From the IMG/VR virus record IMGVR_UViG_3300029058_000046: a stretch of DNA of 21,468 bases, one strand, 5' to 3'. Numbering within the stretch: the first letter of the stretch is position 1; each line of letters begins with the position of its first letter. Positions 5,769 to 18,965 of the stretch are shown piece after piece. A program made the translations under genes and the position numbers. The notes beneath the pieces were generated by a model that worked only from the letters and a program-made list of their open reading frames with translations, did not search any database and had not been told where the DNA came from. This DNA is from a virus. Taxonomy: Duplodnaviria; Heunggongvirae; Uroviricota; Caudoviricetes.

Positions 5769-6152
5769 ATGCTGAACGAGAAACGTTCTATACAAACTAT
5801 TCGCGATTGCACGAGTATTATCGAGACTCATGTGCTGAATCAGCACAAGCTTGAAGTACGTAAGCTCAATAATGACGCTATTGAACCGGAAGACTCACGC
5901 TTCATCGTTACCTTCAAAGACGATGTTGAGCGCGCTGGTGCAAGCGTGAAGCCATTAGCTGAAGCAATTTACCTGAATGGTCGTGTTCGTTTTGTAGTCA
6001 AGCCAGCTAAACAGTACCCTGAGCTGTCTCGTTTTATCGAGGCTTTTTCGGAGGTTATTGAACATTCTATTCGCCGCTTCTTACGCAATCATGGTAGCAT
6101 TGTCAGCACGGTTAAGGCTGATGATTCTGCTACAAAATGGCTCCTACACTAG
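5769..6152 (+). CDS. Hypothetical protein (127 aa)
   Basis: ATG preceded by AAGGTGG Shine-Dalgarno; 3' end overlaps the next ORF by 16 nt. No recognisable motif. Confidence 0.55.
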   Translation: MLNEKRSIQTIRDCTSIIETHVLNQHKLEVRKLNNDAIEPEDSRFIVTFKDDVERAGASVKPLAEAIYLNGRVRFVVKPAKQYPELSRFIEAFSEVIEHSIRRFLRNHGSIVSTVKADDSATKWLLH

Positions 6153-6889
6153 ATAGCGCATATTCAAAAGATCTAAGCGAGTTTCCTCATAAAGGGGAGA
6201 CTCGTGTTGTTCGTTTTGGCTTTCTTATCAATGAAGCCTCCCTCTATAAAATCTCAGAAATTGAAATCATTGAACCAGAAGATGACATTTGCCTGTATGT
6301 CTCTATGGAACTTGTAGGTGCGCGCGACCAAGGCGACCTGAGCGAATTCATCTTAGATCGAGCGGATGAAGATGCCCCTGAAGAAGAGATTATCAAAGAG
6401 GTGCTCCAGTCCGGGCTTCTGGACGAAAACAAAAATACGATCGCTGGTAGGATAGCTCTGCGTGAATATAGTTTTGTTGAAGACGGTAATGAGATCGAAT
6501 GTTACCAGGTAGCCGGTGTCGAAACTGTCAGAGAGCGTCGTCAGCGAGGATTGTGTCACCGTACCTATCTCTTTCTTCTTCATTGGTATGAGCATTTAGT
6601 CTGCGACGATACACAAACCATTCCTGGTGCTAAGATCTGGGCAGGGCCTCTCATGCGAACCGGCGATGTGCGTATATACAATGCCAAAACAGAAACGTTC
6701 GAGGATGTGTTAGGCGAGTACGGGATGGGGAAAGAAACCGGATTTTTGCCGTGGAACAGAGGATTGTTGCTTGATGCAGAGTTAAGCTCTTGGCTCCCAA
6801 ACAAAGTGCAAGTTAACGTTCAGAAATTTATCGTACTTATCATCTCCCGCAAAACAAGAACTCCAGTAGGTTTATACCTAAAAGATTAA
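6137..6889 (+). CDS. Hypothetical protein (250 aa), acidic, no recognised domain
   Basis: Long ORF overlapping the preceding gene, followed directly by a strong intrinsic terminator. Confidence 0.6.
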   Translation: MAPTLDSAYSKDLSEFPHKGETRVVRFGFLINEASLYKISEIEIIEPEDDICLYVSMELVGARDQGDLSEFILDRADEDAPEEEIIKEVLQSGLLDENKNTIAGRIALREYSFVEDGNEIECYQVAGVETVRERRQRGLCHRTYLFLLHWYEHLVCDDTQTIPGAKIWAGPLMRTGDVRIYNAKTETFEDVLGEYGMGKETGFLPWNRGLLLDAELSSWLPNKVQVNVQKFIVLIISRKTRTPVGLYLKD

Positions 6890-6893
6890 AAAT

Positions 6894-6920
6894 CAGGCGA
6901 CTTTGGTCGCCTTTTTTGTT
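6894..6920 (+). terminator. Rho-independent terminator
   Basis: caggcgac-tttg-gtcgcc stem-loop followed by TTTTTTGTT, immediately after the stop at 6889. Confidence 0.75.
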
Positions 6921-7015
6921 AACAGCCATTGATTCTCGCCTAAAAATTCTAAGGCAGCACCTACCATTTAACCTTTACACCACAGCCGTAGGCATTTAGG
7001 CTATATCACATATAA

Positions 7016-7031
7016 GAAAACAAGTTGTTTC
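7016..7031. promoter_or_regulatory. Palindromic motif AGAAAACAAGTTGTTT upstream of the ParA gene; candidate operator
   Basis: Nearly identical copy (AGAAAACAATTTGTTT) at 9946-9961 upstream of the helicase gene. Both are inverted repeats AACAA-N-TTGTT, 34-50 nt upstream of start codons. Confidence 0.3.
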
Positions 7032-7065
7032 AGACGATAATTATATACGCAAAGGGAACTCTCCA

Positions 7066-7734
7066 ATGACCAAGATCTTTGTGGTTGGCGGCACAAAGGG
7101 CGGGCCTGGCAAATCCACCGTTGCCCAGCAAATTGCCGTTTGCCTGAAAGTCAAAAAGAAGAAGAAGGTTTATATCACCGATATAGATATTCAGCGCACG
7201 ACAACGAGCTGGTGTGAAGACCGTCGACAGAACGAAGACCTTGAGCTGATTCCTTTTGCATACGTTCAGGATGACATCATTAAGCACCTAAAATCGCTTC
7301 AGGGTAGAGCTGAGTATGTAGTGGTAGATGCTGGTGGCTTTGACTCCGAAATTCAGCGACAAGCGATGCTGATGGCCGACGTTATCATTATCCCGCTTCG
7401 TCCTAAGCGTCGTGATTTGAAATCTCTGCGTGACATCGATCCTATTATCGACAATGTTCGTAATGTAAACGATAAAGTGAAGGTCCGCGCGGTCATGAAC
7501 CAGTGCCCGGCTTTGCCATCACAAGTGTCTCGCATTCTGGCGGCTAAAGAGATTGTTGAGACGTTTGGCATCGAGTCTGCGCCAGTCAATCTATATAACC
7601 GCAACGTCTATGATGATGCGGAAGAGTCTGGTCGTTCTATCTTTGAAATGACCGGTAGCGAGCGCGACAAAAAGGCGGAAGCCGAGTTTGAAGAATTTGT
7701 AGATTATCTGTTGAGTCTGGAGGAAGAAGAATAA
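7066..7734 (+). CDS. parA: ParA/Soj-family partition ATPase (small, type Ib-like)
   Basis: Deviant Walker A box GGTKGGPGKST at the N-terminus, ~220 aa, acidic C-terminus. Followed by a small overlapping partner gene. Confidence 0.85.
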   Translation: MTKIFVVGGTKGGPGKSTVAQQIAVCLKVKKKKKVYITDIDIQRTTTSWCEDRRQNEDLELIPFAYVQDDIIKHLKSLQGRAEYVVVDAGGFDSEIQRQAMLMADVIIIPLRPKRRDLKSLRDIDPIIDNVRNVNDKVKVRAVMNQCPALPSQVSRILAAKEIVETFGIESAPVNLYNRNVYDDAEESGRSIFEMTGSERDKKAEAEFEEFVDYLLSLEEEE

Positions 7735-8093
7735 TGTCCATGAAAATGGGTGACCTAGCAAAGCGCAAAGAGCCTGATGCACCGGCTAAGAACACAACTC
7801 CTTTGCGCCAACCAGTCAGACCACAGGGACGCCCGACTCGTGGCAAAGAGAAAATTAAAAGCCGCACAATGTCACTGGAGGACGAATACTTCGAACTGCT
7901 GGAGATGATGAAGTTCATCCCTCGCTTCGAGAAGTTCACTCGTTCTGACGTGATTCGAGCAGCCATTTTCCATCTGGCAGAGAAGTCACCGCAGGAAATC
8001 GAGGACATCGTGAAATTGAATGAGGCGATCACCGCTGCCGATGTCACGATGCGTACCGATGAAATCAAACGAGAGTTGATGAAGAAAGGTTAA
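7734..8093 (+). CDS. Small partition partner protein (ParG/ParB-like centromere-binding candidate)
   Basis: 119 aa; start overlaps the ParA stop (TAATG). Basic, probably disordered N-terminus and a C-terminal region (MSLEDEYFELLEMMK...) compatible with a ribbon-helix-helix type Ib partner. Assignment is by context. Confidence 0.45.
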   Translation: MSMKMGDLAKRKEPDAPAKNTTPLRQPVRPQGRPTRGKEKIKSRTMSLEDEYFELLEMMKFIPRFEKFTRSDVIRAAIFHLAEKSPQEIEDIVKLNEAITAADVTMRTDEIKRELMKKG

Positions 8094-8098
8094 AAATC

Positions 8099-8129
8099 AT
8101 GCATTGGCGCGTACATTGCGCCAATGCAT
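8099..8129. terminator. Palindrome between convergent genes; candidate bidirectional terminator
   Basis: atgcattggcgc-gtacatt-gcgccaatgcat: 12-bp perfect stem, 7-nt loop, between the + strand gene ending 8093 and the - strand gene ending 8146. No clear U-tract. Confidence 0.5.
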
Positions 8130-8145
8130 AACTACAGTGTCAGCT

Positions 8146-8913
8146 TTATGCCGCGCTAACACTATGTTCAGTCCTAACCACCCCAACCTTCACAAAAGGG
8201 CTACCGTAGCTTGGTGGCTTCTTGATTAATTTGCCTACATACAGTTTTCTAATATGCTCATCGGCTATTCTGCCAACAAATTCATAACGTTTTGTGTCGG
8301 GGCCAAGAGCTATATCCCTTGTAAAGTACTGCTGAGAACCGGCTTTGACCCAGCATTCAATCTGATAAACTTCCATTATCAGCCCACCATATGTAGCGTA
8401 GGCATATTTGAGATTCTCGTCTCTTGGAACCTTTGCCCATACGCCACGCGTAGCCTCATATAATGCCAGAGCGGACATTCCTGACTTGTAGGTGCTGTTT
8501 AGCAGGAAGGCAAGACCGGCGTGCTCAGGAGCAATTTCAGTTTCCTCTTGCAGCACTAAGTGATGGTAGGCGTCCAGTGATATTCTGCCCATCATGGAAC
8601 CACTTCCTCGTACCTTATTCGTAAGCTCTCCGACCCCCATAAGGTCGATGCATGTCGCCTCAACAAGTTTGGCTGTGGTTTCATCCATACCATGACGAAG
8701 TATATCTATGCCTAATTTTTTATTAGCCAAAAGTTCTTTGATCCGCATGGATTTGGGAGAGTCATCGGGATACTTGATGTGATCGAGACAACGAGTCGAT
8801 TTGCCTTTTCCTATGTAAAACGGTCTTTTCATCTTGTCTTCTGTATCATAGAGACAGTAAACATAGTATTTAGCCTTATCCAATGATCTCGCGTATACCG
8901 ATAAATCGTCCAT
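8146..8913 (-). CDS. GIY-YIG nuclease-domain protein (255 aa) with an unassigned ~160-aa C-terminal domain
   Basis: N-terminal YVYCLYD...RPFYIGKGK...R..H...E pattern matches the GIY-YIG catalytic motif. Only sizeable antisense gene in the partition/replication region. Confidence 0.7.
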   Translation of the reverse strand: MDDLSVYARSLDKAKYYVYCLYDTEDKMKRPFYIGKGKSTRCLDHIKYPDDSPKSMRIKELLANKKLGIDILRHGMDETTAKLVEATCIDLMGVGELTNKVRGSGSMMGRISLDAYHHLVLQEETEIAPEHAGLAFLLNSTYKSGMSALALYEATRGVWAKVPRDENLKYAYATYGGLIMEVYQIECWVKAGSQQYFTRDIALGPDTKRYEFVGRIADEHIRKLYVGKLIKKPPSYGSPFVKVGVVRTEHSVSAA

Positions 8914-9024
8914 TATTGCATCTCTTTGCTACTGACTAATGCGTTCTATTTTACACATAAGTTTTTAATCAATTTAACAGGCTCAAAGTGTAGAGCTTCT
9001 GGGCGTCTAAGACGACAAGTTATG

Positions 9025-9079
9025 CCTGCTTCTGTATATATAAATAATAAGTAACTTATTAAATATATACGGAAGCAGG
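9025..9079. promoter_or_regulatory. ~55-bp AT-rich near-perfect palindrome between the divergent GIY-YIG gene and the replication module; candidate operator or origin element
   Basis: cctgcttctgtatatat ... atatatacggaagcagg: 17-bp arms with one G-T mismatch, around an internally palindromic AT-rich core (aataagtaacttatt). Confidence 0.35.
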
Positions 9080-9195
9080 TCTTTTAAAAGACACCACCAG
9101 AACAACTCCCTTCCGTTTCCACTTCCAAAAACTGCCACCAGTCGCTATCATCCGCTCATTGTGATAAGTAAGTAACTACCTACCAGGTGAGCCAC

Positions 9196-9936
9196 ATGAG
9201 CCAAATCTTTTTCGATACCATCGACAACGACCAGTACGACTTCATGACAGAGTGGAATACCGCTGTTATGGACAAGTGGGTCGCTGAAAACATTGGTTTG
9301 TCGCGCTGTAAAGACGAGGCTGAACTCTTCGAGACGAAGTGGTTTGATTACCGCGACATGCATCCTCTCATGGCCACCTGTCTTTTTACGGAGGCATACA
9401 AACGTCAGTACTCAAATATCATGCTGACGCACGGTCGCGAACACTTTGAAACAGCTCCGTTCACCACCGGGTTAAAACGCCTGCCTTATCAGGAGTTGTC
9501 GACTGCCAATAAAACGTCTCTATGGAAAGCACGCCAGTTTGCTGACCGCTATTGCTGCTCATACGACTACTTTATCTCCACCGTTCTTTCCGCAGCTGCA
9601 CGACGGCTGTGGGACAAGCTGCCGCGCCCACAGCATTTATGGCAGCCAGAGCTGGTTGAGATATTCGAAGAGAAATTAGCCAGACGCGCAACAACCCGTC
9701 TGGATGACTCTCTAGTTAGCTTTAAGCATATGGGAGACATGCAGTTCAACCCGATCCAGGAAAGCTATTTTGAGTGGATTCTGGAGCGTTTACGCACCAT
9801 CCCCCGCAGCAAGCGCATACGCGCAATTTTCTCCGCTATCTGGCTAATGGAAATCGTTCCAGAGCGCCTTATTTCCGCCCACTTTCCAGAAGAACTGGAA
9901 GAAGCACGGCGGTTTATTGATCCCCTATCTAATTAA
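9196..9936 (+). CDS. Hypothetical protein, first gene of the replication module (possible initiator or helicase loader, by position only)
   Basis: AGGTGA RBS 5 nt before the ATG at 9196 (the track's start at 9187 is GTG). Directly precedes the helicase gene. No motif recognised. Confidence 0.55.
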   Translation: MSQIFFDTIDNDQYDFMTEWNTAVMDKWVAENIGLSRCKDEAELFETKWFDYRDMHPLMATCLFTEAYKRQYSNIMLTHGREHFETAPFTTGLKRLPYQELSTANKTSLWKARQFADRYCCSYDYFISTVLSAAARRLWDKLPRPQHLWQPELVEIFEEKLARRATTRLDDSLVSFKHMGDMQFNPIQESYFEWILERLRTIPRSKRIRAIFSAIWLMEIVPERLISAHFPEELEEARRFIDPLSN

Positions 9937-9945
9937 CTAATACTA

Positions 9946-9961
9946 GAAAACAATTTGTTTA
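9946..9961. promoter_or_regulatory. Second copy of the AGAAAACAA(G/T)TTGTTT palindromic motif, upstream of the helicase gene
   Basis: AGAAAACAATTTGTTT, 19 nt before the ATG at 9980; matches the motif at 7016-7031. Confidence 0.3.
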
Positions 9962-9979
9962 AAAAACAAAGGAAAGCAC

Positions 9980-11320
9980 ATGACCGAACTTTGCCATACA
10001 GGACGCGGGCTGTCCGAAGAGTTTGATGAAGATTTCCAGAACAGACTGACGGCATATTTTTGTCGTGATCACGAGTTTCTTACTCGTGCGGGAGATCTGG
10101 TTGTGCCTAGCCAATTTGCCAATGCGGCCAATGCCATATTGGTTAATATGGTTTCGGGCTATTACCGTATGTACAAGAGCGCGCCTTCTTCATCTGCGAT
10201 TCTGGATATGCTTAAGCGTGCGAAACGCGATAAGACCATCCGTGAGGAACTCTTCCCGGATGTTGTTGCTGCGTTTAAGCGCATCCTTGCAGAAAAATTG
10301 TCTGATACCTCGTACATGGTTGACCAGGTATCCACATTCGCAAAAAGTGTAGCGTTTGATGATGCTCTGATTAAAGCTGCTGAACTGAAAGAGAAGGGCG
10401 ACTTTCAGGGGGCGATGGCAATCATGGCCAAGGTTCAGCAGATAGGCTCGAACGAAGCGACCGGAATCTATGACTACTACACCTCCGCAAGTGAGCGATT
10501 GAAAGCGCGTGAATATGAGGCTTCAGAGGAGTATGTGCCAAACAGCATTACAACTGGACTCCCTCTGCTTGATAGATTGCTGTACCAAAAAGGCTGGGCA
10601 AAGCGCGAAATGGTGCTCTTCATGGGTTTTGCTAAATCCGGTAAATCGACCGCAATGGGTGAGTTTTCCATAAACGCTACGCTTGCTGGCTACAATGTTC
10701 TGTATCTCTCGCTGGAGGTTCACACCACCATTTTGTCCGACCGTTTTGATGCAAGATTGTCGGAGACGGAAATGTCCAAGCTGGTGGAACGGCGCGATGA
10801 AGTTCATCGCAAGTTGGCAGAGTTGGGAGCCACGAAGGGGATTGGTAGTTTGTGGGTTGTTGAGCGTCCGTCAGGAAGTATGTCACCGGCAGATCTGGAC
10901 CGTATGCTTAACAGTATGAAAGCCAATGGCATGGTGCCTGACATGGTTGTTGTCGACTACGCAGATTTGATGCGTGCCAGTTATGACCTTCGTGATGATC
11001 GCGCCAACATTCGTAGTATCTACACCGATTTACGTGCTCTTTATGACAAGCATAACGTTGCTGGTATCACGGCGTCGCAAACAAACCGTGAAGGTGGCGC
11101 GTCAGAAGTTGCCACAATGATGCACGCTGCCGACAACATCGAAAAAGTACGTATTGCTGACCTGGTAATAACGATCAACAAAACCGAAGAAGAAGAAGCG
11201 AAAGGAGAGGCTCGTCTCTACTTTGCTGGTTCGCGTAACCAGCAGGGAGGGATCAGCATTCGCGTTAAACAAAACCTCGAACAAATGCGCTTCATTGAGC
11301 GAATCTTAGACGTTACCTAA
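9980..11320 (+). CDS. DnaB-family replicative DNA helicase
   Basis: Walker A GFAKSGKST, SLE motif (LYLSLEV), Walker B-like VVVDYADLM and SQTNRE motif, in the order typical of DnaB/T7 gp4-type RecA-fold helicases. AAGGA RBS upstream. Confidence 0.85.
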   Translation: MTELCHTGRGLSEEFDEDFQNRLTAYFCRDHEFLTRAGDLVVPSQFANAANAILVNMVSGYYRMYKSAPSSSAILDMLKRAKRDKTIREELFPDVVAAFKRILAEKLSDTSYMVDQVSTFAKSVAFDDALIKAAELKEKGDFQGAMAIMAKVQQIGSNEATGIYDYYTSASERLKAREYEASEEYVPNSITTGLPLLDRLLYQKGWAKREMVLFMGFAKSGKSTAMGEFSINATLAGYNVLYLSLEVHTTILSDRFDARLSETEMSKLVERRDEVHRKLAELGATKGIGSLWVVERPSGSMSPADLDRMLNSMKANGMVPDMVVVDYADLMRASYDLRDDRANIRSIYTDLRALYDKHNVAGITASQTNREGGASEVATMMHAADNIEKVRIADLVITINKTEEEEAKGEARLYFAGSRNQQGGISIRVKQNLEQMRFIERILDVT

Positions 11321-11327
11321 AAAATAA

Positions 11328-11348
11328 GCGTGGAGAACACCTCCACGC
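11328..11348 (+). other. Perfect 8-bp hairpin (gcgtggag-aacac-ctccacgc) between the helicase stop and the primase gene
   Basis: Inverted repeat read directly. It contains the GTG that the ORF track uses as the primase start (11330), so that start is unlikely to be real. No U-tract. Confidence 0.35.
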
Positions 11349-11401
11349 TTGATTCATTGGTGAAACAACTTTTCTTTTGCCAAACCACAAAAGAAAAACA
11401 C

Positions 11402-12583
11402 ATGAGCCTTTATGTTATATCAACATTTAGGTTGGTCACAATATTGCCTGTTAAAAGTGGAATTATCGTGAGCGAGCTGAAAGAGCTAATTACCGAATTA
11501 GATTTTGAACAATGGTTGGATACTGAAGGTATCGTTTATCGACGTGGAGGCGTGAGTACTCGCGGTCGTGAAGTGAATATCAAGGAGTGTCCGGTATGCG
11601 GCAGCTCCAACTGGAAGGTATATTTCAATCTGACCAGTGGCGTCGGTAAATGCTTCGCTGGTGATCATCCCGAAGAGATTCAGTTCAATAAGCTGGTCTT
11701 CCTCAAGCACTACAGCGGTAAATCACGACGACAGTTCGAGGAATATGTGCAGAACGCTCTTCTTTCCCAGGGGTGGGCACCAAAGAAAGAAGAGATAGTG
11801 CTTGCAAGCACAGTCGAGTTAGAGGGACCAGTTGCACTCCCTCGTCATTACGATCTTCCTATAGATGGCCATCTTCCAGACTATCTGGTTGAACGAAATA
11901 TATCGCCTGAAATGGCAAAGTATTTTGACCTACGATACTGCGTCGAAGGCAAGCACGCTTATGTAGATCCGTATACAGATCAGGTTAAAGGACAGATTTT
12001 CGATATGCGAATACTGATACCGGTTTACGATCTGGATGGGGTAATGAAGACATTTCAAGGACGAGACATTACCGGTACAGCAGAACGCCGCTACCTCTTT
12101 CCTATGCAGCTTCCAGCTTCAGGTAAGTTTCTCTACAACGGCCACAATGCAGTCGGCAAACAGACTGTAGTTGTCTGTGAGGGGGCGTTCGATGTTATGG
12201 GGGTCAAACGAGCTATTTTTGACGAAGAAACATTACGCGATTACGTGGAACCAATAGGAACGTTCGGGATGCATCTATCTGGTAACACCACTCAGGATGC
12301 AGAAGATCAGTTGGGCGCGTTCCTGACGCTCAAGGCGCGTGGATTACGTAATGTGATCATGATGTGGGATAGTGAAAAGCAAGCTATACGAAACACTATG
12401 GCCGCAGCCAGGCGACTGACCAGTATCGGTCTTAATGTGAAAATTGCATGTTTGGGCGAGGAAGGACTCGACCCCGGCGATGCGACCCCGGGGCAGATTA
12501 TCAAAGCCTACTATTGCGCAAAACCTTACTCACGACAGCTTGAACTTTTAAGCAAGGTAAAAGGCATAGCAGCATTAGTTTGA
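11402..12583 (+). CDS. DNA primase (zinc-ribbon plus TOPRIM domain)
   Basis: Zinc-binding motif CPVCGSS...GKCFAGDH and TOPRIM-like acidic motifs (VVVCEGAFDVMGV, EEGLDPGD). Start uncertain: ATG 11402 or GTG 11468; 11330 sits inside a hairpin. Confidence 0.75.
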   Translation: MSLYVISTFRLVTILPVKSGIIVSELKELITELDFEQWLDTEGIVYRRGGVSTRGREVNIKECPVCGSSNWKVYFNLTSGVGKCFAGDHPEEIQFNKLVFLKHYSGKSRRQFEEYVQNALLSQGWAPKKEEIVLASTVELEGPVALPRHYDLPIDGHLPDYLVERNISPEMAKYFDLRYCVEGKHAYVDPYTDQVKGQIFDMRILIPVYDLDGVMKTFQGRDITGTAERRYLFPMQLPASGKFLYNGHNAVGKQTVVVCEGAFDVMGVKRAIFDEETLRDYVEPIGTFGMHLSGNTTQDAEDQLGAFLTLKARGLRNVIMMWDSEKQAIRNTMAAARRLTSIGLNVKIACLGEEGLDPGDATPGQIIKAYYCAKPYSRQLELLSKVKGIAALV

Positions 12584-13720
12584 ACCAGTATTAGTCACGT
12601 ACACATTGACCGAAAATGATTTAACTTCTGTGTTGAAGTTGTCAGTCATTACCGCGAGGTAGGCATTCTTGGTATCTCTGAATTGCTTCAGTATGATTTG
12701 AACGTTATCGGTGCAAACAAACGAGGTAGCCAGATTGCCTCCTTTCTCTGAAAAATCCTTCAGGAAGGTGCAGTCAACTTTGCCATCATTAGCGGTGAAG
12801 GTAGCATCATCACCCTGCCAGGTAAATGTAGCGTTAACGCCCTTATCAATGGATTTAGCAATAAGTCGCTGGGTGGCGGATTTTGTTTTGGCTTTGGAAG
12901 CCGGCGCTCGATATTTGCCGCTTTCTTTCAGTTCTGCAATGTAATCACAGCCATTTTTATCTTCTTTATCACAAGCAGCCTGATAAAGCTCAGCTGCTTT
13001 TTTATAGTCTTTTTTAACCCCTTCACCATACTCATACATAATGCCAAGATTTGTCATGGCATCGGCGTTTCCGAGTTCAGCAGCTTTTTTATACCACTTA
13101 ATTGCTTCGGCATCGTTGCGTTTAACACCTAAACCGTCATCGTATAAGGTGCCTAATGCGAACATGCCATCTGAACTACCTTGATCCGCCGCTTTTTTGT
13201 AATAAGTAAAAGCTTTTTTATAACTCTTTTGTACACCTTTACCATATTGGTAATACGCACCAAGAAGGTAGCTAGCTTTAACATACCCGGCATCAGAGGC
13301 TAGTTTGAAGTATTTAATGGCGAGCGCATGATCTACTTTACCAAGCATCCCCTTTTGATAAATAGCACCAAGATTGTTATAGGCTCTACCTTCACGAGCA
13401 TCTCCCGCAAGTTTGTAGTACTCAACTGCTTTATTTAAGTCTTTATCTACACCCTCGCCAAATGTGTACATAACCCCAAGTGCATAATATGCTACTTTGT
13501 CTCCCTTTTCTGCAGCGAGATCAATCCACTTCTTGGCCTCAACTACATCCTTATCAAAACCATTGATACCATCAAAATAATTTGTCCCTAACTCACTTTG
13601 TGCTGCGGTATCCCCTGCGGTAGCGGCTTCTATCAGCGTTTGTTTATTGTCTGCGTTAACGAATCCAGAGCTAAAAAGCAAAGTTAATGCCAGCAACGAT
13701 GAAGATTTTATGTATTTCAT
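12575..13720 (-). CDS. Secreted Sel1-like repeat protein with a ~130-aa non-repeat Cys-containing C-terminal domain
   Basis: Sec signal peptide MKYIKSSSLLALTLLFSSGFVNA/DN, then at least six ~36-aa repeats of the form A..YY..G.MY..GEGV.KD..KA..WYKKAA typical of Sel1 repeats. 3' end overlaps the primase 3' end by 9 bp. Start taken at the ATG for MKYIK; the track's TTG at 13765 is less likely. Confidence 0.75.
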   Translation of the reverse strand: MKYIKSSSLLALTLLFSSGFVNADNKQTLIEAATAGDTAAQSELGTNYFDGINGFDKDVVEAKKWIDLAAEKGDKVAYYALGVMYTFGEGVDKDLNKAVEYYKLAGDAREGRAYNNLGAIYQKGMLGKVDHALAIKYFKLASDAGYVKASYLLGAYYQYGKGVQKSYKKAFTYYKKAADQGSSDGMFALGTLYDDGLGVKRNDAEAIKWYKKAAELGNADAMTNLGIMYEYGEGVKKDYKKAAELYQAACDKEDKNGCDYIAELKESGKYRAPASKAKTKSATQRLIAKSIDKGVNATFTWQGDDATFTANDGKVDCTFLKDFSEKGGNLATSFVCTDNVQIILKQFRDTKNAYLAVMTDNFNTEVKSFSVNVYVTNTGSN

Positions 13721-13953
13721 ATTTTTTGTTCTGTTGATATAGGATGAACAGTTTAGACGCGGCAAGTGTCAAGTGTGCGAAAAATGGTACTTAAATTTAG
13801 TTAATATGTCAGCTTTGTTGATTTAGTTTATGGTCGGTAAAGTTACTAGGAAACTAATAACCATAAGAAATAGTACGCCATTTAATTATTGTGGCACTGC
13901 TCGTGTTTTGATTAACTAATACCTGCGATAAATATAAATAAAGGGAAGCCAAC

Positions 13954-17125: not shown

Positions 17126-17301
17126 TGCTCGGCTGGATGATTGCATTTTTAGCAGTTGGTTTTTTCATCGGTATTGTGGTGATGTCCAGTTGCATTAATG
17201 ACTACATTAAAAACGGTGTTATAGAAAGACGCGGTCGCATTTATCGCATTGTAGAAATAACCAACACCGTGAAGGAGATTAAGGATGATCGTATTAAGTA
17301 A
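17122..17301 (+). CDS. Small membrane protein (59 aa), below the ORF-track cutoff; paralog of the ORF at 17497-17649
   Basis: ATG overlaps the ligase stop (ATGA); GGAGA RBS. N-terminal TM helix (WMIAFLAVGFFIGIVVM) and C-terminal motif RGRIYRIVEIT shared with the 17497 ORF. Confidence 0.4.
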   Translation: MMLGWMIAFLAVGFFIGIVVMSSCINDYIKNGVIERRGRIYRIVEITNTVKEIKDDRIK

Positions 17302-17500
17302 ACGGGAGAAGGAAACGCTTCATGAAATCAGTAAGTGGCCGGAGTTCCCTGAGTACTGGAAGCCTAAAACGCGAGCTAAGTTAGAGCGTTTAGGGTTGGT
17401 TGCAAACGTTTCTGAAACGAAGTGTTCGGCCAACTACCAGTTAACTGATAAAGGGAAAGTATTGCTACAGCAATTAGTAGAATCAGGAGTGTTAAAATGA
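17285..17500 (+). CDS. Hypothetical small protein (71 aa)
   Basis: AAGGAG RBS before the ATG at 17285; overlaps both neighbours. Confidence 0.45.
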   Translation: MIVLSKREKETLHEISKWPEFPEYWKPKTRAKLERLGLVANVSETKCSANYQLTDKGKVLLQQLVESGVLK

Positions 17501-18718: not shown

Positions 18719-18793
18719 GATGGTGTAGCTCAGCGGTAGATCAGTTGGCTGTTAACCAACTGGTCGGTGGTTCGAATCCACCCACCATCGCCA
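18719..18793 (+). tRNA. tRNA-Asn (anticodon GUU), CCA encoded
   Basis: Manual fold: acceptor gatggtg/caccatc, anticodon stem gttgg/ccaac with loop CTGTTAA, T-arm ggtgg-ttcgaat-ccacc, discriminator G, CCA. The D-stem has one mismatch. Confidence 0.75.
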
Positions 18794-18798
18794 ATTTA

Positions 18799-18885
18799 GG
18801 GGAGTTAGTCCGTAGAGGTAGCGGTGTAGACTGTAAATCTACTGTCATGGCGACTCGGGTGGTTCGACTCCATCACTCCCCACCA
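18799..18885 (+). tRNA. tRNA-Tyr (anticodon GUA), class II with long variable arm, CCA encoded
   Basis: Acceptor ggggagt/actcccc, anticodon stem-loop gtaga-CTGTAAA-tctac, ~15-nt variable arm, T-loop ttcgact, CCA. Starts 5 nt after tRNA-Asn. Confidence 0.8.
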
Positions 18886-18889
18886 AATT

Positions 18890-18965
18890 GCCGGTTTAGC
18901 TCAGTTGGTAGAGCAGTCGCTTTGTAAGCGAATGGCCAGCGGTTCAAGTCCGTTAACCGGCACCA
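18890..18965 (+). tRNA. tRNA-Thr (anticodon UGU), CCA encoded
   Basis: Canonical D-arm tagctcagttggtagagc, anticodon loop TTTGTAA, T-arm agcgg-ttcaagt-ccgtt, acceptor gccggtt/aaccggc, CCA. Starts 4 nt after tRNA-Tyr. Confidence 0.85.

Follow-up and report, generated by a model that had tools for sequence, protein, structure and literature searches.

We analysed a 21,468-nt stretch of viral DNA (IMG/VR record IMGVR_UViG_3300029058_000046; the window, taken at its full length) that is part of an SSU5-like phage-plasmid and carries a palindromic 16-mer upstream of two genes, the partition gene parA and the gene for a DnaB-like helicase. We found that this palindrome is a family-wide, operator-like site and is not specific to partition and replication: its 13-bp core, AAACAA-N-TTGTTT, occurs ~13-21 times per genome ahead of unrelated operons. 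It is highly probable that the sites serve as the cis-regulatory operator of a global regulon. In our full model, to which we give a probability of roughly 0.45, a FljA-family protein is the candidate binder of this regulon-wide operator. The original prediction held that one shared operator couples partition and replication gene expression to a single regulator. As regards the site it stands, with one conserved palindrome that follows a promoter-like element and precedes the ribosome-binding site at both parA and the helicase gene and is kept in diverged relatives, but its scope and its binder have to be revised.

Both 16-mers, AGAAAACAAGTTGTTT before parA and AGAAAACAATTTGTTT before the helicase gene, are present, at true positions one base lower than first reported (Table 1). 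Each holds the core as a perfect 6-N-6 palindrome, at 7018-7030 and 9948-9960, and the second copy is located in the 43-nt gap between the open reading frame (ORF) 9187-9936 and the helicase gene. From the start of the 16-mer to the ATG we measured 51 nt (ParA, 7066) and 35 nt (helicase, 9980), and from the end of the motif 35 nt and 19 nt, respectively, roughly matching the 34-50 nt given earlier. These two are the sole copies at ≤1 mismatch in the 21.5-kb window; shuffled windows contain a mean of 0.18 such copies, and two copies were reached in 1 of 100 shuffles. The remark that no other copies were seen in the window was therefore correct but misleading, because the complete element has 18 at ≤1 mismatch.

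The genome-wide counts were made on the complete E. coli record of plasmid pM160133_p3 (NZ_CP022167.1, 113,428 bp), which we assembled and in which the coordinate of window position p is 48170 - p. Window positions 6000-12600 are 100% identical to this plasmid, 97-98% identical to the phage-plasmid Cyrano, and ~82% identical to Salmonella phage SSU5, with related plasmids by the hundreds in Klebsiella, Enterobacter, and Salmonella. The E. coli element has 9 perfect and 9 one-mismatch copies of the palindrome, where its dinucleotide shuffles give expectations of 0.05 and 0.72. Together with SSU5 and Klebsiella pJN2-26, the counts are 9, 11, and 11 perfect copies against shuffle means of ≤0.05, and 18, 20, and 17 copies at ≤1 mismatch against shuffle means of ≤0.72. 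In an unbiased count of all perfect 6-N-6 palindromes in the same three genomes AAACAA ranks first, and every other palindrome reaches ≤2. Background frequency is thus ruled out by the genome-wide motif search, with perfect copies enriched >100-fold and none of them in an annotated coding sequence (CDS). Annotated CDSs hold 0 of the 18 copies of the E. coli element even though they cover 78% of the record (chance P ~2e-12). An exact 16-mer scan of IMG/VR returned mostly single chance matches plus SSU5-like contigs and was uninformative, and we found no paper on the AAACAA-N-TTGTTT motif in the literature searched.

The genes headed by copies in the E. coli element include parA, the helicase gene, cobT, nrdB, and genes for DUF4942, TerB-like, DUF1380, and HNH proteins, as well as several small genes; the terminase small-subunit gene (terS) has two copies. 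A coupling specific to partition and replication does not agree with this distribution, since the same palindrome heads unrelated operons throughout the genome. Likewise, what had been called the replication operon is a phage-type helicase/primase set, and the plasmid initiator gene repA (Cyrano 60633-61688) has no palindrome copy within 2 kb.

We observe palindromes at orthologous promoters in SSU5 (11 perfect and 9 one-mismatch copies), in the Klebsiella elements pJN2-26 (11 and 6), CP027615.1 (16 and 5), and CP094899.1 (10 and 3), in Y. pestis pMT1 (3 and 3), and in further diverged loci. Across 29 distinct sequences upstream of parA (80 IMG/VR loci), the core shows no change other than in its central base. 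The helicase copy is kept in 28 distinct upstream sequences, with a variable central base and, in a few of them, a degenerate right arm. Deeply diverged lineages retain both copies with changed flanks. Because the motif is identical in every lineage bearing it, no analysis of covariation between regulator and motif was possible. The key control is Moellerella wisconsensis pW18-2-b (NZ_CP093251.1), a syntenic, distant SSU5-like element and the single palindrome-free genome: it has no perfect copy, and its 3 one-mismatch copies are without the promoter flank and all apparently inside coding sequence, as expected at chance level. The promoter-proximal half ATAAGAAAACAA is retained in this element, e.g. 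upstream of parA, and the TTGTTT arm is lost.

Sites were aligned on the palindrome, and consensus sequences were built from 61 class I and 22 class II sites over six genomes. In the E. coli element, a T is found exactly 14 nt upstream of the dyad in 18 of 18 copies, within a GATAAT-like hexamer, and an AGA flank directly precedes the dyad, on its promoter-facing side, in 15 of 18. A TTGGAC/TTTACA-like hexamer followed by GCCTT is located ~17 nt further upstream of the GATAAT-like hexamer. The class I consensus (61 sites) is tAaTta.accaAtaAGAAAACAA.TTGTTTAa. In the 22 class II sites the 16-mer is inverted (TTGTTTTCT) and the same promoter core follows directly, with a AGAAAACAA element ~51 nt downstream; the core common to the two consensus sequences is GCCTTTTC-N8-GATAAT. 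Judged by this alignment, the class I dyad would lie at ~+8 to +20 of a sigma-70-type promoter, between the -10 element and the Shine-Dalgarno sequence, and the right arm of the class II dyad would overlap the -35 element of a downstream promoter. If these promoters are right, class I sites would be transcribed as part of the 5′ leader, close to the Shine-Dalgarno sequence, and class II sites would lie upstream of promoters. Class II copies often have a partner at 51 bp, either a class I copy or a half-site, and the paired sites show spacings of 25 and 51 bp. The gap from motif to start codon is wide, at ~11-59 nt (from annotated starts, with a heuristic estimate for the consensus set), and the distance to the -10 element is fixed.

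Both sites in the window belong to class I. An intrinsic terminator hairpin upstream of parA ends the preceding operon, so parA needs its own promoter, and its palindrome would be at about +8 to +20 of the sigma-70-like promoter that we propose there (Table 1). In the spacer between the helicase and primase genes we found a degenerate copy, AAACAACTTTTCTTTTGCC, which has at least 2 mismatches and an uncertain status and which resembles the class II context TTGTTTTCTGCC. This spacer (window 11330-11381) also contains a hairpin, GCGTGGAG-N6-CTCCACGC, 3′ of the helicase gene and followed by the degenerate copy and then the primase gene.

A stable RNA hairpin or attenuator at the sites was considered and rejected: the folding energy of the dyad is -0.7 kcal/mol, and the leaders are no more stable than shuffles (z-scores about 0). 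One-mismatch variants are not pair-preserving, and no compensatory double changes were seen. A search of the window with Rfam identified just three tRNAs and nothing at the palindrome sites.

Expression in the plasmid state was taken from the RNA-seq values for the Cyrano lysogen (PMC9928086, S1 table; background 9.8). The genes just 3′ of Cyrano's 18 copies have values of 5.7-25, with parA as the sole exception at 49.8 (PMC9928086). The helicase gene has a value of 21 compared with 6 for the gene upstream of it, which suggests a weak promoter at the second site. Operons with a palindrome at their head are thus essentially silent in the plasmid state, except that parA is partly expressed. In the same table, an ORF at Cyrano 40268-40822 (CYRAN_43), whose counterpart runs off the right end of the window, reaches 7084 in the lysogen against the background of 9.8; it may conceal a small RNA or be a strongly expressed accessory gene.

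In the model that we favor, a regulator encoded by the element most likely binds the dyads and, in the plasmid (lysogenic) state, would keep the operons downstream of them at background expression or close to it. These operons would comprise phage DNA metabolism, the replisome, packaging, and many small early genes, while the par operon, which also carries a copy, would be only partly held down. parA and the helicase gene would then share control because both belong to the global regulon. The best candidate for this regulator is a FljA-family protein (PF03614) from an opposite-strand block of genes expressed in lysogens. Repression as the mode of control is our inference, as are the binder's identity and its choice of DNA or RNA as target.

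The FljA-like gene is present in 7 of 7 palindrome-bearing elements, down to 33% identity, and absent from Moellerella pW18-2-b, making its product the sole tested regulator that tracks the palindrome in all eight elements. It is above background in the lysogen block of Cyrano, where the gene is CYRAN_114, and homologues are found in 835 PLSDB records. The protein is predicted to fold as two tandem Sm/Hfq-like domains; no solved structure was matched by sequence. The Klebsiella elements retain the gene in a host that is normally non-flagellate, so that its target probably extends beyond host flagellin. H99, a Klebsiella record of 60 kb whose FljA-like gene is 41% identical, proved to be a partial SSU5-like element and not an independent context. 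In Moellerella the FljA slot is filled by an unrelated 209-aa ORF.

To our knowledge, the only role described for FljA-family proteins is repression of one flagellin mRNA during phase variation in Salmonella. In this flagellar phase variation, FljA acts on the fliC mRNA leader and blocks its translation (PMC4122451, PMC2652032). As flagellar FljA binds the fliC mRNA leader, the phage protein may act on the transcribed site, on DNA, or on both. The fliC leader of Salmonella has CAAGTTGT within the 40 nt before its ATG, a few bases 5′ of the Shine-Dalgarno sequence (from a primer, PMC3410353). An extended reading, which we regard as possible but rather doubtful, is that the FljA family was originally the global regulator of SSU5/pHCM2/pMT1-type phage-plasmids, that flagellar FljA is a domesticated copy, and that the fliC leader sequence CAAGUUGU is a relic of the phage operator. 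Under this origin, the tandem Sm/Hfq-like protein made in the plasmid state would bind the ~20 copies of AAACAA-N-UUGUUU/TTGTTT and silence lytic, replisome, and partition operons.

Several observations weigh against the FljA-family model. The co-occurrence of gene and palindrome depends on one negative genome, Moellerella, and nine other genes have the same presence/absence profile across the five genomes compared. The resemblance to fliC is a single 8-mer, CAAGTTGT, noticed after the fact. The site geometry looks like that of an operator in double-stranded DNA (a perfect dyad, a fixed -10 distance, -35 overlap, and 51-bp pairs), as opposed to the target of an RNA-binding Sm fold, and the palindrome as RNA is weakly folded (just -0.7 kcal/mol) with variants that do not preserve pairing. 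The promoters themselves were assigned from conserved hexamers across the 61 aligned sites, and a simple sigma-70 promoter scan made no call at them. Finally, parA is ~5-fold above background in the lysogen despite its perfect site.

The DNA-like geometry suits a 71-aa protein encoded in the window, which has a MarR-like winged-helix fold of the type that binds DNA dyads as a dimer; the palindrome would then be its double-stranded DNA operator. Made in lytic growth from the ligase operon, its dimer would shut off or time early and middle promoters, and the silence of these promoters in the lysogen would have another cause. The fixed -10 distance, the -35 overlap, and the paired sites all fit this reading, and the gene is found in four palindrome-bearing genomes and is absent from palindrome-free Moellerella. 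However, it is deleted in CP094899.1 and missing from pMT1, both of which keep palindromes, and it is silent in the Cyrano lysogen, so that we consider this binder improbable. At the CP094899.1 deletion (L231 24480-24760), the first 75 codons of the DNA ligase gene are fused to the C-terminal tail of the 71-aa gene; separately, PLSDB counts suggest that ~150 Klebsiella SSU5-like plasmids are without the winged-helix gene. Of about the same low likelihood is a conserved host factor of the Enterobacteriaceae and Yersiniaceae that binds the dyad, or an effect of the dyad on RNA polymerase or the ribosome that needs no dedicated protein, either of which would tie the promoters to host physiology. 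No change in the motif is seen between elements with proteins that have diverged to 33-50% identity, and the sole relative without it lives in another host family, the Morganellaceae. Yet a large regulon constrains its own operator sequence, and an unchanged motif therefore needs no host binder; in addition, Rfam gives nothing at the sites, and no enterobacterial regulator is known to us to have this consensus.

Two further element-encoded proteins have distributions that do not follow the palindrome. The small ParA partner, which had been put forward earlier as a possible regulator, is a ParG-like ribbon-helix-helix (RHH) protein with, in an alignment, a conserved N-terminal MGDLAKR and an invariant DNA-reading beta-strand, IKSRTMS, followed by helices. 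The targets of RHH proteins such as CopG include 13-bp pseudo-symmetric elements. The palindrome is found just upstream of parA in all palindrome-bearing lineages, and the parA copy could be autoregulatory with the dispersed copies acting as centromere or silencing sites, similar to SopB of N15, omega of pSM19035, and KorB of RK2. The partner is also expressed in the lysogen, at 89 in the Cyrano table. Against this, Moellerella pW18-2-b keeps ParA and the partner (beta-strand KSRTVS) with no palindrome at parA or elsewhere, and pMT1 keeps palindromes with no such ParA/partner pair. Furthermore, there is a single copy at parA, where type Ib centromeres are typically iterated arrays. The RHH partner is accordingly disfavored as the binder, and quite unlikely. 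A centromere array at the par locus was rejected, as positions 6850-9990 contain no repeat family beyond the two sites. The least likely of the proteins is the CI-like helix-turn-helix repressor encoded beside the integrase, just outside the window, which would bind the palindromes in parallel to P1 C1. Its gene is annotated as a putative repressor with a lysogen expression of 96 (PMC9928086), and the logic of dispersed operators matches P1. It is disfavored by its phyletic pattern and its own control region: SSU5 has no CI-like homologue yet 11 perfect palindromes, Moellerella has a homologue and no palindromes, and the divergent control region of the gene carries GGTAAG/CTTACC repeats and not the AAACAA dyad. 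In NZ_CP022167.1 (L001 24545-24795), this CI-like/cro-like divergent region contains GGTAAG-N2-CTTACC plus further GGTAAG and CTTACC copies, which are probably the operators of the immunity repressor and distinct from the palindrome.

The arrangement has partial counterparts in several known systems. In P1, asymmetric 17-mer operators bound by C1 are dispersed over ~100 kb and overlap the promoters of lytic genes, those for replication and the DnaB-type helicase gene ban among them. The likeness is that of a phage-plasmid with many short operator copies at promoters, through which one regulator could silence many operons; the difference is that we find a perfect 13-bp dyad here, that the CI-like repressor does not co-occur with it, and that P1 C1 does not control parA. 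Salmonella FljA and fliC resemble our system in that the element encodes a PF03614 protein, class I sites, like the FljA target, would lie in the 5′ leader near the Shine-Dalgarno sequence, and the fliC leader shares the 8-mer CAAGTTGT with the dyad. In contrast, flagellar FljA has one known RNA target where there are ~20 sites here, a third of them upstream of promoters, and the dyad forms no stable RNA hairpin. KorB/OB of RK2, omega of pSM19035, and SopB of N15 likewise use short palindromes (13 bp for KorB) dispersed at promoters and link partition, replication, and other functions, but here the distribution of the partition adaptor mismatches that of the motif. T4-type PeSL cassettes place a conserved promoter and a short dyad before many small early genes of a variable region; they have a real stem-loop and are discussed as recombination modules, whereas in our case the dyad is too weak for folding and it is the sequence that is conserved. 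T4 RegA, a small phage protein, binds an AU-rich site by the ribosome-binding site common to many early mRNAs. RegA sites are non-palindromic and overlap the start codon, whereas here the start distance varies and the -10 distance is fixed.

Table 1. Features discussed in the text. Positions are those of the window unless another record is named.
Feature	Position	Strand	Description
Terminator	6895-6912	+	Intrinsic terminator hairpin closing the operon upstream of parA
Putative parA promoter, sigma-70-like	6974-7007	+	-35 TTTACA (6974-6979), 17-nt spacer, -10-like TAGGCT (6997-7002)/TATATC, 6997-7007; from sequence, kept in relatives
Operator copy 1, AGAAAACAAGTTGTTT	7015-7030	+	Class I, AGA + AAACAA-G-TTGTTT, parA leader
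ParA	7066-7734	+	Small type Ib Walker ATPase, 222 aa; Pfam AAA_31, MipZ, CbiA, ParA
ParA partner	7734-8093	+	119 aa, ParG-like RHH adaptor; weak RHH match, aCcr1 family
Operator copy 2, AGAAAACAATTTGTTT	9945-9960	+	Class I, AGA + AAACAA-T-TTGTTT, before the helicase gene
DnaB-like helicase	9980-11320	+	Phage replisome; Pfam DnaB_C
Degenerate motif copy, AAACAACTTTTCTTTTGCC	11363-11381	+	Helicase-primase spacer
Winged-helix protein	17285-17500	+	71 aa, MarR-like fold; rival candidate binder of the palindrome as double-stranded DNA
FljA-family protein	NZ_CP022167.1 78912-79436, outside the window	opposite-strand block	PF03614, E=1.5e-84, full length

The remainder of the window contains several other features. 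A 55-bp near-perfect AT-rich palindrome with GC clamps, CCTGCTTCTGTATATATAAATAATAAGTAACTTATTAAATATATACGGAAGCAGG, is found at 9024-9079, in the intergenic region from which a GIY-YIG-like ORF (8146-8913, minus strand) and the ORF 9187-9936 diverge; possible functions are those of an origin, a centromere, or the operator of divergent promoters. At 8099-8129, where the RHH gene and the GIY-YIG-like ORF converge, a perfect 12-bp inverted repeat, ATGCATTGGCGC-N7-GCGCCAATGCAT, has the form of a terminator hairpin without a T run. A Sel1/TPR-repeat protein is encoded at 12575-13765 on the minus strand; it has no counterpart in SSU5 and the Klebsiella relatives, and its gene looks like an accessory, moron-like insertion. 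The three tandem tRNA genes identified with Rfam are at 18719-18962, and in Cyrano the corresponding place is annotated with tRNAs for Asn, Thr, and Ser.

Among the SSU5-like phage-plasmids are pHCM2 of S. Typhi and a large part of Y. pestis pMT1, and the FljA-like gene, a marker of the family, is found in >800 PLSDB plasmids of Klebsiella, E. coli, Enterobacter, and Salmonella. These elements are common, and some have resistance genes, but their gene control is essentially undescribed in the literature searched. One 13-bp operator at ~20 promoters provides a direct handle on the way in which ~100 kb of phage genes are kept silent during plasmid life, and it shows the place of the partition and replisome genes within this control. 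Should the FljA-family protein prove to be the binder, a new origin would follow for a classical flagellar regulator, and a tandem Sm-fold protein would be the master regulator of a phage.

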